From Promethearchaeota archaeon (GTDB taxonomy: Archaea > Asgardarchaeota > Lokiarchaeia > Sigyniarchaeales > SOKP01), in NCBI GenBank assembly GCA_029838195.1, contig JALGVJ010000034.1, positions 1-37,539 of the forward strand: a stretch of 37,539 bases of DNA, given 5' to 3'. Positions 8,388 to 34,311 of this stretch are shown here, one piece after another. The position numbers and the translations under genes were made by a program. Numbering within the stretch: position 1 is the first letter of the stretch; every line of letters starts with the position of its first letter. The notes under the pieces are model-generated. The model ran no database searches and was not told the origin of the DNA. It worked only from the letters and a program-made list of their open reading frames with translations.

Positions 8388-9785
8388 TTATTCCGCACAA
8401 CAAGTCATTTTGGAGATATCTCGTTTGAAACTTTGAGCCGCTAATTTAATTTGTTCCGATAAAGTAGGAAAAACGTGGATAGTATTAATTACATCATCCA
8501 ATTTCATCTTATTTTTTAATATCATCGCACCTTCATGAATAATATTTGAAGCATTGGAGCTTAAAATATGAACGCCCAATATTTCTTCCGTTTCTCGGTT
8601 AATTACCATTTTTATCGCGCCTTTAGTCTTTCCCATTATCCTTGCTTTTGGTACCAATTCAATAGGAATAGTATTACATTTACATTTAAAACCTCTCTCA
8701 TTCGCTTCAAGATCTGTGAGTCCCACGCTCCCAACTTGGGGGTCCGTGAAAATTGCATGAGGTATCACATCATAGTTCATCTCAATTTTCAATTCAGATA
8801 CAATATTATGCGCAGCAATCATTCCTTCTCGAGCTGCAATAGTTTCTAATATGGGCTCTCCTGTTACATCTCCAGCTGCCCAAATGTTATCTCCCGCCCA
8901 CATTTGTTTATCTACTATAATCTCCCCTTTTTTTCCTATTTTAAGATTTAGCTTTTCTAATCCTAAATCATTGATATTTGCCGTTCGTCCGGAAGCTATT
9001 AAAATTTTTTCTGCTTTCAATGTTTCGCTCTCTCTTCTTATGAGGCACTCAGCATTTATTTCTCCACCTATTTCATTAATTTCATTAACCGTGCAATTTA
9101 GATGAATATCAATTCCCTCCTCTACTAAATATTGATAGAGAAGATTCGAAATTTCTGGTTCTTCATTTGAAATAATATTCGGTAAGGCTTCCAATAAGAT
9201 TACTCTCGAGCCGAATCTTGAAAATAATTGAGCAAATTCTAACCCTAACGCACCTCCTCCCAAAATTAAGATAGATGCCGGAATCTTTTTTAATTGTAAG
9301 GCTGAAATGTTTGTTAAATAATTAACGTCTTCTAATCCTTGAATGGGAGGAATATAAGTAGAAGAACCCATTGCTATTATAAAATTTTTAGCGGAATAAG
9401 TCGTTTTTCCTATAAGAATTTTTTCTGGCGAAATAAATCGTGCCTTTCCATTAAGATATTCAACATGCTCTAAATTCTCCAATATTTTTTTGTATTTTTG
9501 CTCTCGTAAATAAGCTACCAATCTTTCCTTACCTTTCATGATCTGAGCAAAATCAAAAGAACTTGAAGTATTTAAACCTAAAAATCTCGGATGATTATTG
9601 TCATAAACGATTCGTGCAATATTAAGCAAATATTTGGTAGGCACGCATCCCACGTTAACGCATGTCCCTCCAATTCCAACAATATCATCATTAATTAATA
9701 AACTTCTAATTTTTAATTCATTTAATTTCATGGCCGCTGCGAATCCTGCTGCGCCCCCTCCAATGATTATTATTTCATATCGCAA
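8388..9785 (-). CDS. merA: Mercuric reductase, lacking the N-terminal NmerA domain
   Basis: GGGAAG FAD fold, redox-active GGTCVNVGCVP, GGGALGLE NAD(P)H fold, FTDPQVGSVG, and the diagnostic C-terminal vicinal Cys pair (MTCCAE). Confidence 0.88.
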   Translation of the reverse strand: MRYEIIIIGGGAAGFAAAMKLNELKIRSLLINDDIVGIGGTCVNVGCVPTKYLLNIARIVYDNNHPRFLGLNTSSSFDFAQIMKGKERLVAYLREQKYKKILENLEHVEYLNGKARFISPEKILIGKTTYSAKNFIIAMGSSTYIPPIQGLEDVNYLTNISALQLKKIPASILILGGGALGLEFAQLFSRFGSRVILLEALPNIISNEEPEISNLLYQYLVEEGIDIHLNCTVNEINEIGGEINAECLIRRESETLKAEKILIASGRTANINDLGLEKLNLKIGKKGEIIVDKQMWAGDNIWAAGDVTGEPILETIAAREGMIAAHNIVSELKIEMNYDVIPHAIFTDPQVGSVGLTDLEANERGFKCKCNTIPIELVPKARIMGKTKGAIKMVINRETEEILGVHILSSNASNIIHEGAMILKNKMKLDDVINTIHVFPTLSEQIKLAAQSFKRDISKMTCCAE

Positions 9786-9926
9786 ATGTAAAAATCACGC
9801 TCTTTTAATTCTTTAATTAAATAAGTTTCTTTTTAAAATCCTGCCAGTAAATTAATAAATTCCTAACAATTTTTAATAATTTTTAAATTAATCAAATAAA
9901 ATTTTAATGAGAGCTTGCAATCTCTT

Positions 9927-9962
9927 CTCACTCGATAACTATAATTTGCTTATCGAGATCAT
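9927..9962 (-). promoter_or_regulatory. Putative eukaryote-like SECIS element (3' UTR selenocysteine insertion sequence)
   Basis: Minus strand reads AUGAU-CUCGAUAA-GCAAAUUAUAG-UUAUCGAG-UGAG: an AUGA/GA tandem core, a perfect 8-bp helix and AAA in the apical loop, about 30 nt after the TAA of a gene with 4 in-frame UGAs. Confidence 0.75.
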
Positions 9963-9991
9963 CGATCTTTCATCTTATTCTTTTCTTTCTC

Positions 9992-31692: not shown

Positions 31693-34311
31693 ATGAAACC
31701 GATTGAAATTTTCTCGTTAAATGGAACGTGGAGATTAAAAAGAGAAAATGGAAAGGAAAAGCTTTCAGCAGAAGTTCCCGGCTCTGTATTTGAAGCATTA
31801 CTCCATCAAAACATCATTAAAGATCCATTTTATGGGGTAAATGAACAGAAAATGGCTTGGATTCATGAATCCAATTGGAAATATGAAAAAGAATTTACCA
31901 TCTCAAGAGAATTCTTGACTCATCAACATGTAACATTATGCTTTAAAGGAATTGACACGATTTCAAAAATTTTTCTTAATGGCACGTATATTGGTTCAAC
32001 AAAAAACCTGTTCATGGCCAATGAATTTGAAGTAAAATCGCTCCTACGTGAAGGAAACAATAAACTTGAAGTAATCATCTATAGCCCAACGCAAGCGGCT
32101 CAAGAATTAATGAAAATCCACGGGAAATTAGTAACGGATGAAACGGCATTACCAGGTATAGAATATTTGAGAAAAGCCCAATATTCCTTCGGGTGGGATT
32201 GGGGGCCCAAGCTTCCCGATATGGGAATTTGGAAACCCATAGAACTCATTGGGCATGATGGAATCAGACTTGAATCATATTATATCATGCAGGAATTTGA
32301 ACATGATAATTCAAATACGCAATCTGCTCCAAAAATTAAATCCGTGCATTTAAGCATTATCGTTAATGTCGACGCTAATAAGGAGTTGCTTTCTACGAGA
32401 GAATGCAAAATTAAAGTTGAACTAATAGATCCTGAAGGACTTCCAATAATGGAAAAAGAACAACGCTTGAAAACTCTCTCGACCAAGTTCGATTTTACTA
32501 TCATCGCTCCTAAATTATGGTGGATTCATGAACTTGGCGCTCCTAATCTTTACCAAATAAAACTCTCTCTTCACGAAAAAGAATTAATAGAATCTCTTCA
32601 AGGGCATTTTGGAATTAGAGAGCTTAAATTGATTAGAAATCCCGATAAATGGGGAGAAACCTTCTATTTTTCTCTTAATGGAATTCCCATCTTCGCCAAA
32701 GGAGCAAATTGGATTCCGGTGGATAGCTTCATCCCACGAGGCAAAAAATTAGGATTGTACGAAAAAAATTTATTAAATGCTAAAAAGGCAAACATGAACA
32801 TGCTGCGCGTGTGGGGCGGGGGTATTTATGAAGATGACCTTTTTTACGAAATATGCGATAAATTAGGAATTCTCGTGTGGCAAGATTTTCCCTTCGCTTG
32901 TCGAATTTATCCCGCTTATGAAGAATTTTTAGAGAACATGCGTTCAGAAATTATTCAAAACGTAAAAAGATTAAGAAACCATCCAAGCTTGGCATTATGG
33001 TGCGGAAACAATGAAATAGAACAATTATGGAAATATTTACTCTTGAGAATCGAAAATCAAAATCCTGACCGAATTCATTTATGTGAACGAGGATATATAA
33101 AAATATTTGAAGAATTAATTCCCAATTTTTTAAAACAACTAGATCCTCAACACCCTTATTGGCCAAGCTCTCCTTCTAATGGATTCGTGAATAATAATTT
33201 AGGAAAAATTGATTCTAATTCCCCTGATCGGGGCGATAGTCATTTCTGGAGCGTGTGGCACGGGGGCAGATCTTTTAAATCGTATAGAAAATTCAATTCA
33301 CGCTTCATGTCTGAATTTGGATTTGAATCCTTTCCTTCTATGAAAACCATAAAAGAGTTTTGCCCTCCAGAACAATTTAACATCCATTCGCCTATCATGG
33401 AAAGTCATCAGAAAAACCCAGCAGGAAACAAAAAAATCTTGAATTACATGAAACGCCGGTTTAAATTGCCCGAACATTTCGAAAAGCAAGTCTGGTTATC
33501 TCAAATCATGCAAGCAGAAGCCATTGAATATGGCGTGGAGCATTGGAGACGCCAAAGAAATGAATTTCATTGCATGGGCTCTCTTTATTGGCAGTTAAAT
33601 GATTGCTGGCCCGTTTGCAGCTGGAGCTCCTTGGATTATTTTAATCGATGGAAAGTTCTCCATTATTTTGCTAAAAGATTTTACGCTTCCTTATTTCCAA
33701 GCGTGGAAGAAAAGAAAGATGAAATAAGCTTCTGGGTTTCTAATGATTTAAAAGAAGAAAAGAGCATTCTCTATTCGTGGAAAATATTAAATTGCGAGGG
33801 CAAGATAATCGCAAAAGGCAAGTATAATACCAAGATCAGCCCGCTCTGCTCTTTAAAATTAGGTTCTGTAGATTCCGAATCCTTACAACTAATTTCTAAC
33901 AATCCTCATGACTATGTTATCTTTTATGAATTAAGCCTCGAGCAAGAAGATCAAGAAATGGAAAATCTCAATGTTCTCTCGGGATTTCGATTATTAACAG
34001 CTCCAAAAAATTTTTCCCTTAAAAATCCCGAATTATCCATCACATTTCTCAATGAACATGAAAACAAAGACCTCCTCGACGAATTTCTGCTGGAAATAAA
34101 GAGTAAAAATGTTGCATTATACGTGTTTATTGAATCTGATTTGATTGATTTTATCGCATCAGACAATTTCTTCTCCATGGAACCCAATAAGAAAAAAATC
34201 GTGAAAATTAATTATATAAAACCGTTGAAAAACGTAAAAATCTATTCCCGTGAAGAAATCAAAAAATCCTTTATCGTCAGCTCGCTTTTTGACATGTTTT
34301 CGGAAAAATAA
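31693..34311 (+). CDS. GH2 beta-mannosidase-like glycoside hydrolase
   Basis: RKAQYSFGWDWGP, KGANWIP, NMLRVWGGGIYE, WQDF, WCGNNE (acid/base), SEFG (nucleophile) and YWQLNDCWP. Confidence 0.9.
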   Translation: MKPIEIFSLNGTWRLKRENGKEKLSAEVPGSVFEALLHQNIIKDPFYGVNEQKMAWIHESNWKYEKEFTISREFLTHQHVTLCFKGIDTISKIFLNGTYIGSTKNLFMANEFEVKSLLREGNNKLEVIIYSPTQAAQELMKIHGKLVTDETALPGIEYLRKAQYSFGWDWGPKLPDMGIWKPIELIGHDGIRLESYYIMQEFEHDNSNTQSAPKIKSVHLSIIVNVDANKELLSTRECKIKVELIDPEGLPIMEKEQRLKTLSTKFDFTIIAPKLWWIHELGAPNLYQIKLSLHEKELIESLQGHFGIRELKLIRNPDKWGETFYFSLNGIPIFAKGANWIPVDSFIPRGKKLGLYEKNLLNAKKANMNMLRVWGGGIYEDDLFYEICDKLGILVWQDFPFACRIYPAYEEFLENMRSEIIQNVKRLRNHPSLALWCGNNEIEQLWKYLLLRIENQNPDRIHLCERGYIKIFEELIPNFLKQLDPQHPYWPSSPSNGFVNNNLGKIDSNSPDRGDSHFWSVWHGGRSFKSYRKFNSRFMSEFGFESFPSMKTIKEFCPPEQFNIHSPIMESHQKNPAGNKKILNYMKRRFKLPEHFEKQVWLSQIMQAEAIEYGVEHWRRQRNEFHCMGSLYWQLNDCWPVCSWSSLDYFNRWKVLHYFAKRFYASLFPSVEEKKDEISFWVSNDLKEEKSILYSWKILNCEGKIIAKGKYNTKISPLCSLKLGSVDSESLQLISNNPHDYVIFYELSLEQEDQEMENLNVLSGFRLLTAPKNFSLKNPELSITFLNEHENKDLLDEFLLEIKSKNVALYVFIESDLIDFIASDNFFSMEPNKKKIVKINYIKPLKNVKIYSREEIKKSFIVSSLFDMFSEK

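Follow-up and report, generated by a model that had tools for sequence, protein, structure and literature searches.

The described RNA closest to the hairpin of this study is the lokiSECIS, described for the HdrA-VhuD, VhuU and PrxL genes of Lokiarchaeota (Mariotti et al. 2016, PMC4989117). As defined in that paper, it comprises an AUGA, a 9-bp stem, an 11-nt loop, and GA or AA after the stem. The loop starts A-rich and ends with an ultraconserved G that is usually preceded by A, and the element is located near the stop codon. Its upper helix was described as shorter than the eukaryotic one. The same class appears as type I eSECIS-like in Huang et al. (2024, PMC11227280), who allowed a stem of 7-15 bp with at most two mismatches and a loop of 8-20 nt. 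The SECIS of Methanococcales and Methanopyrus is different in build, with two GC-rich stems and an invariant GAA/A bulge between them (PMC4989117). In the fruA gene of M. maripaludis, the natural gap between UGA and SECIS is 88 nt (PMC9622424). According to the account in PMC4989117, no binding partner is known for any archaeal SECIS.

In this work, we analysed a 37,539-nt stretch of DNA from a Promethearchaeota archaeon (contig JALGVJ010000034.1); "the window" denotes this stretch at its full length. Judging from its sequence, a hairpin on the minus strand is very probably a lokiSECIS, i.e., an Asgard type I eSECIS-like element, and would add one more case to an RNA element that has already been described. 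We estimate at about 90% the probability that it is the SECIS of the 62-codon gene directly upstream and recodes the UGAs of that gene.

The hairpin and its neighbouring genes

The minus-strand RNA element spans positions 9962-9928 and is composed of AUGA, a stem of nine positions, the 11-nt loop GCAAAUUAUAG, and GA (Table 1). An earlier note on this DNA had pointed out the AUGA/GA core, a perfect 8-bp helix, and AAA in the loop, and the minus-strand letters bear out all three. The main stem is AU-rich and uninterrupted, with neither a GAA/A asymmetric bulge nor GC-rich stems. In the loop, A occupies only three of the first five positions, and the first two bases are GC. Folding, which the note had proposed as a check, returned the helix (a U·U pair followed by eight Watson-Crick pairs) but no sign of unusual stability: compared with dinucleotide shuffles, the fold was not more stable, with z = 0.06 for 96 nt and z = 0.03 for 61 nt. 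Because z was close to 0 at both lengths, stability was dropped as evidence for the hairpin. The U-rich tract that follows may be an oligo-U terminator, or the lower-helix strand pairing with 9972-9980; neither role is supported.

Table 1. Features of the element and its surroundings, with positions in the window.
Feature	Position	Strand	Description
62-codon ORF with four in-frame UGAs	9995-10180	minus	GDCCVxC-family zinc-ribbon small protein; probable client of the element
UGA codons 25, 47, 49, 59	10108-10106, 10042-10040, 10036-10034, 10006-10004	minus	from the translation
TAA stop	9992-9994	minus	29 nt before the AUGA core
C-stem, 5' strand (U9965, C9964)	9964-9965	minus	2-bp stem; covariation in alignment A4
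3-nt bulge (G9963-A9962-U9961)	9961-9963	minus	between the C-stem and the G·A pairs
AUGA core	9959-9962	minus	invariant in 31/31 aligned elements
Main stem, 5' arm, UCUCGAUAA	9950-9958	minus	U·U at the base, then 8 Watson-Crick pairs
Apical loop, 11 nt, GCAAAUUAUAG	9939-9949	minus	AAA at loop positions 3-5, U9 and final G invariant
Main stem, 3' arm, UUAUCGAGU	9930-9938	minus	from folding and alignment
Core GA	9928-9929	minus	GA in 28/31 aligned elements, AA in 3/31
C-stem, 3' strand (G9927, A9926)	9926-9927	minus	directly after GA; covariation in alignment A4
Side hairpin (third arm)	9909-9925	minus	AGAG 9925-9922 with CUCU 9913-9910, loop AUUGCAAG
U-rich tract, UUUUAUUU	9894-9901	minus	possible archaeal oligo-U terminator, or 3' strand of an AU-rich lower helix
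merA	8388-9785	minus	TIGR02053 MerA, 511.9 bits, model positions 1-465; context only

The product of the ORF at 10180-9995 reads MKSTSNVKCPSCGH...GDTPUYGI and is matched by NCBIfam NF041374 at 41 bits, with a cut-off of 40. The four UGAs precede the A of AUGA by 143, 77, 71 and 41 nt. In the alignment with the Cys-forms, U25, U49 and U59 fall on columns of invariant Cys, and U47 misses the fourth Cys by one residue. All four UGAs and every zinc-ribbon Cys are intact in the ORF. The passages of PMC11227280 that name the seven Asgard selenoprotein families do not include the GDCCVxC family. In the relevant part of a 2026 review, its sole entry is 'GOS_B', a metagenomic family with one Sec. The 79-codon ORF upstream of the gene (10322-10561, minus strand) has no Pfam match. 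In the interval separating this ORF from the four-Sec gene, a TATA-like TTTAAATT precedes the ATG of the latter by ~ 20-27 nt, a position that suggests a short-leader or leaderless mRNA.

We also considered whether the element serves merA on its other side, and rejected this. The merA gene is a full-length ORF with no in-frame UGA, and among the 27 homologous loci just 7 have it next after the small gene. Since merA is adjacent in so few loci and is complete without UGA, the hairpin was assigned to the small gene.

Specificity within the genome

The genome of the window comprises 4.5 Mb with 33% G+C. A strict pattern scan of this genome found the same architecture behind seven other ORFs with in-frame UGA, and the loops of these elements share the consensus nnAAAUnnUAG. 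Three of the seven seed ORFs are FlpD/vhuD (Pfam 142-150 bits), with two in-frame UGAs each. The genes with such an element behind them (vhuD, small zinc-ribbon genes, and one with a CUU motif) are unrelated, and their sole shared trait is the in-frame UGA.

We built covariance model R1 from the seven other hairpins, with the candidate left out. Searched against the window with filters off, R1 found the candidate at 36.8 bits (E = 1.6e-6), and the next best match scored 17.9 bits. Scaled to 9 Mb, the E-value of the candidate is about 2e-4. A genome-wide R1 search, in which 150 of 5,564 first-look candidates were scored (this hairpin not being one of them), gave 26.9 bits as the best non-seed match. 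Moreover, we scanned all 71,847 ATGA sites of the genome exhaustively with a simple loop profile and a stem model. The candidate scored 22.0 and ranked seventh, among seven seeds at 21.4-30.7; the next site scored 13.8, i.e., 8 bits below the candidate, and all others scored at most 10.9. The model that the earlier note had called for, built from this genome's other elements (three of them behind vhuD), therefore recovers the hairpin, and like hairpins do follow bona fide selenoprotein genes, namely the three FlpD/vhuD genes with two UGAs each.

The 13.8 site of the scan (locus L017, G000:C34:75832, plus strand) is a real element located 41 nt after a 37-codon zinc-ribbon ORF. It has two stem mismatches and a 10-bp lower helix. 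The final codon of the ORF before its TAA is UGA, and the gap from this UGA to the core is 44 nt. A lokiSECIS-like element with ACGA replacing AUGA was observed at locus L019 (G000:C90:60597, plus strand), 13 nt after a 147-codon ORF with HADUU...U. Its stem is otherwise perfect, the loop reads AUAAACCUUAG, and both GA and a side hairpin are present. With only the bulge base changed, this may be a variant of the core that still functions. The second-best R1 match in the window (32822-32881, plus strand; 17.9 bits, E = 0.056) has GAUGA and an imperfect stem. It lies within an 872-codon ORF (31693-34311) and is probably due to chance.

The class assignment rests on R1 and the published description; Rfam gives no match. 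At gathering thresholds, Rfam found no SECIS or other meaningful family in the whole window. At E ≤ 10, no SECIS family was found in the 151 nt of 9860-10010, where the sole match on the hairpin strand was snoU30 (14.1 bits, E = 3.7). This snoRNA U30 match is at chance level and reflects the GAUGA/UGA kink-turn boxes. A box C/D sRNA identity was rejected, as guide regions are lacking and the only such match is the chance-level snoU30. Rfam appears to be without any lokiSECIS model.

The hairpin itself displays every published lokiSECIS feature: the AUGA/GA core, the 9/11 geometry, A residues and the final AG in the loop, and the position after a stop codon. The earlier note had read it as a eukaryote-type 3' UTR SECIS, similar to those reported for Lokiarchaeota and unlike the methanogen type, and this reading is supported by the geometry, R1, conservation, and the genes that host such elements. 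The caveat attached to it, that the upper helix is short, turned into its opposite, as the 9-bp stem with an 11-nt loop is a diagnostic lokiSECIS trait (PMC4989117).

Homologous loci and covariation

A six-frame search with the protein recovered 27 further loci, all from the same order, with three to five in-frame TGAs; 25 of the 27 have exactly four. In 22 of these UGA-keeping loci, R1 matched directly after the stop at E ≤ 0.005. Weaker matches (14.8-18.3 bits) with 12-nt loops were found at the same place in three loci. One locus (L036) carries a type II-like element with a mini-stem, and in another (L039) the status of the hairpin is ambiguous. The R1 scores of the homologues range from 14.8 to 42 bits, with the 36.8 bits of the candidate in mid-range.

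The gapless alignment A4 contained 31 elements: the candidate, eight further ones found in this genome, and 22 taken from relatives. Two-sided changes occurred at all nine stem pairs, and 92% of the stem cells were paired. Pairs 2-9 were formed in at least 94% of the sequences, and the first pair was non-standard in 17 of 31. The invariant loop columns were A24-26, T30 and G32. For twelve pairs (the stem plus three tested closing pairs), the covariation score was 0.87, compared with 0.23 for shuffles, of which 0 of 500 reached 0.87, and at most 0.21 for slid partners. Unguided RNAalifold on the homologue alignment returned the same helix. Compensatory changes, named in the earlier note as a check, are therefore present in the homologues, and the hairpin is conserved with such changes where the four TGAs are kept.

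Cys-form homologues come from other families of the phylum and carry Cys (GDCCVFCSYGDTPC). In 20 Cys-form loci, R1 gave no match above 13.8 bits. On these searches, a hairpin that goes with the UGA-forms and is absent from the Cys-forms is the expected pattern, though the contrast is confounded with phylogeny, every Sec-form lying within one order.

In three relatives (L033, G045:C159, 1359-2377; L032, 1403-1765; L044, 789-1770), we observed the four-Sec gene clustered with one or two paralogous genes. These are about 150-175 codons long and encode adjacent Sec-Sec (GCUU, HADUU or SAUGUU motifs). Each clustered Sec-Sec gene has its own lokiSECIS 2-7 nt past its stop. The Sec-Sec paralogues in the genome of the window sit elsewhere, at C34:12266 and C90:60597.

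Kink-turn consensus and side hairpin

The kink-turn consensus comprises a C-stem, a 3-nt bulge, tandem G·A/A·G pairs, and a non-Watson-Crick 3b·3n pair. Kink-turns of the Kt-7 and box C/D types are joined by three-way k-junctions, in which a third helix lies next to the C-stem. In our element, this sequence consensus is present throughout: the C-stem, a 3-nt bulge (N-A-U), G·A/A·G, and a non-Watson-Crick first stem pair. The inner C-stem pair (-2/+1) was formed in 31 of 31 elements (CG 14, GC 11, AU 4, UA 1, UG 1), and the outer pair (-3/+2) in 27 of 31; a third C-stem pair, tested on the 31 elements of A4, was not supported. By analogy with known kink-turns, G9960 and A9959 would be placed for tandem sheared G·A/A·G pairs with A9928 and G9929. 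The hairpin is thus predicted, from its letters, to adopt a kink-turn fold.

Directly 3' of the C-stem lies the side hairpin. A side hairpin of -3 kcal/mol or better within 26 nt after the GA was found in 29 of 31 elements, compared with 15% of random 26-mers, and it was also predicted by RNAalifold on the homologue alignment. Its loop holds (U/G)GC in 28 of 31 elements, as read by eye from the folding output. No copy in the family is weaker than the one here (4 bp, -3.2 kcal/mol), but it keeps the common register. A pairing of the apical-loop GCA with the UGC in the loop of the side arm was considered and rejected, as most homologues begin the apical loop with AA or AU.

The eight further elements of this genome, like the more distant homologues, have a lower helix that closes a three-way junction. 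In this element and most of its close homologues, it is absent or merely AU-rich. The pairing of 9972-9980 with 9894-9902 was not supported: it came from a single-sequence fold only, is AU-rich, and is absent from most homologues of the same family. The weak lower helix GAUC/GAUU proposed in the earlier note was also given up, because GAUU lies within the conserved side hairpin and the pairing is lost in the homologues. In the text of PMC4989117 and PMC11227280, figures aside, there is no covarying 2-bp C-stem, 3-nt bulge, side hairpin or three-way junction.

Spacing between the UGA codons and the core

The last UGA is located 41 nt before the A of AUGA in our element, and the corresponding distance in 24 loci is 38-65 nt, with a median of 44 nt. 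The loci differ in the length of the tail encoded past the last Sec (3 to 15 codons) and in the distance between stop and core (-4 to 29 nt). The tail here ends YGI-TAA where the closest homologue, L028, has FGIQ. Without that TAA, the frame would continue to the UGA within AUGA, which is where it leads in two relatives; the early TAA leaves the UGA-to-core spacing unchanged. The spacing may therefore be kept by descent, with the coding tail acting mainly as a spacer.

Two further small genes of this genome have UGA-to-core gaps of 37 and 44 nt. In four relatives (L046, L043, L051, L038), the terminal codon of the four-Sec gene is itself a UGA, placed either 12-18 nt ahead of the core or within AUGA. 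Presumably, these UGAs are too near the SECIS to be recoded and terminate translation. Such loci would bracket the lower distance limit for recoding between about 18 and 37 nt, which fits the idea of a minimal distance in PMC4989117.

Selenocysteine machinery of the host

The genome encodes tRNA-Sec (Rfam RF01852, 53.9 bits, above the gathering score), with the SepSecS gene (483.6 bits) adjoining it. SelB scored 255.6 bits, above the cut-off, and a PSTK-like gene scored 153.6 bits, below the curated cut-off. The selD gene (187 bits, above cut-off) contains one in-frame TGA. A full-length actin match (443 bits) was found together with three actin relatives, and these matches, taken together with the remaining evidence, are consistent with a Loki-type Asgard host. 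A search for the L7Ae family returned only two matching genes, both ORFs of ~ 125 aa, and no large SBP2-like L7Ae protein in the genome. For Lokiarchaeum, Mariotti et al. likewise reported no SBP2-like protein in their account (PMC4989117).

Proposed role and alternative explanations

The earlier note took the hairpin as support for Sec recoding of the adjacent gene, and this is now backed by the class of the element, its specificity in the genome, the covariation, the Sec/Cys pattern, and the machinery. In the mechanism that we propose, the 3' UTR element would form a 2-bp stem, a G-A-U bulge, sheared G·A/A·G pairs, U·U, and eight further pairs, with the side hairpin directly 3' of the core and the 11-nt loop displaying AAA and UAG. 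When a ribosome reaches a UGA 41-143 nt upstream, the element would recruit the archaeal SelB·GTP·Sec-tRNA(Sec) complex, either directly or via a kink-turn-binding protein such as L7Ae. The UGA would then be decoded as selenocysteine and not as a stop. Both Sec insertion at all four codons and a binding partner of the element are predicted here from sequence.

We must also consider that the hairpin arose by chance in an AT-rich spacer. Its stability equals that of shuffled sequence, and loose pattern scans yield dozens of ATGA hairpins in the genome; however, a rank of 7 among 71,847 ATGA sites, 8 bits clear of the following one, the R1 E-values both in the window (1.6e-6) and scaled to 9 Mb (~ 2e-4), and the compensatory changes across homologues effectively refute a chance origin. 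It is very unlikely, in our judgement, that the element is a conserved kink-turn RNA with another job and that the UGAs are recoded independently of it. Such a job might be L7Ae-binding control of mRNA stability or termination, or of translation of merA, which shares the strand and follows after 140 nt. L7Ae ligands in general have the kink-turn consensus, a U-rich tract comes after the element, and the account in PMC4989117 gives no known binding partner for the archaeal SECIS, all of which would suit that job. It would leave the occurrence of the same element behind unrelated UGA-containing genes (vhuD, CUU-motif, zinc-ribbon) to be explained, however. Moreover, the element tracks the four-UGA gene and not merA (adjacent in 7 of 27 loci), and it is absent from 20 of 20 Cys-form homologues.

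Less credence still goes to the view that the hairpin is a SECIS by descent, belonging to a gene-element pair that is decaying or inactive, with translation now ending at the first UGA. The C-terminal tail is indeed shortened (YGI-TAA vs FGIQ in L028), no member of the family has a weaker side hairpin, and a clear lower helix is lacking. Decay is nevertheless hard to reconcile with four UGAs, zinc-ribbon Cys residues, AUGA/GA core, invariant loop bases, and C-stem that are all intact, with an R1 score of 36.8 bits that is mid-range for the homologues (14.8-42), or with an early stop that keeps the UGA-to-core spacing. We retain the assignment of the hairpin as, very probably, a working SECIS of the 62-codon gene.

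As a tentative extension of this assignment, the lokiSECIS could be a kink-turn set in a three-way junction, with the (U/G)GC side arm docking a SECIS-binding factor or SelB, and with a lower distance limit on recoding. By the same extension, which we regard as more doubtful than probable, a UGA at least 37 nt upstream would be recoded, one at most 18 nt upstream would terminate, and the K/E/Q-rich tail would be a spacer of ~ 44 nt. A tail that is a mere spacer would explain why the early stop is tolerated in this genome.

Comparison with known systems

On the sequence evidence, the element supports a 62-residue four-Sec protein, missed by gene callers, as a client of the Asgard Sec system. 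The known Asgard selenoproteome would thereby widen beyond the seven families set out in the respective part of PMC11227280. The current picture of SECIS evolution is unchanged by the element. The gene family also provides a compact natural test bed: the four UGAs span no more than 105 nt, a single SECIS lies only 41 nt past the last of them, and ~ 27 natural variants exist. It is suited to questions about the minimal UGA-SECIS distance, processivity over several UGAs, and what the kink-turn and the side arm each contribute.

With the euryarchaeal SECIS, our element has in common the 3' UTR location, an archaeal Sec system, and the lack of a known binding protein. In contrast to it, there is no GAA/A bulge here, and the gap to the UGA is 41 nt, compared with 88 nt in fruA (PMC9622424). 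The likeness to eukaryotic SECIS form 1 (SECIS_1) lies in the order AUGA...AA...GA, the 3'-UTR site, action at a distance on several UGAs, and the expected kink-turn core. Unlike the eukaryotic element, it has a shorter upper helix (nine positions), a host without SBP2, and a last UGA only 41 nt from the core. Compared with Kt-7 and the k-junctions, the C-stem, the 3-nt bulge, G·A/A·G, the U·U that comes next, the regular helix, and the third helix beside the C-stem are all alike; however, the C-stem backed by covariation is only 2 bp long here, and the likeness is one of sequence consensus and covariation.

The agreement with lokiSECIS extends to one element serving several UGAs, the archaeal Sec machinery, and a position a few tens of nt past the stop. 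The element differs from the described lokiSECIS in its client, a small GDCCVxC-family protein with four Sec, and in its loop, which starts with GC and not with A.
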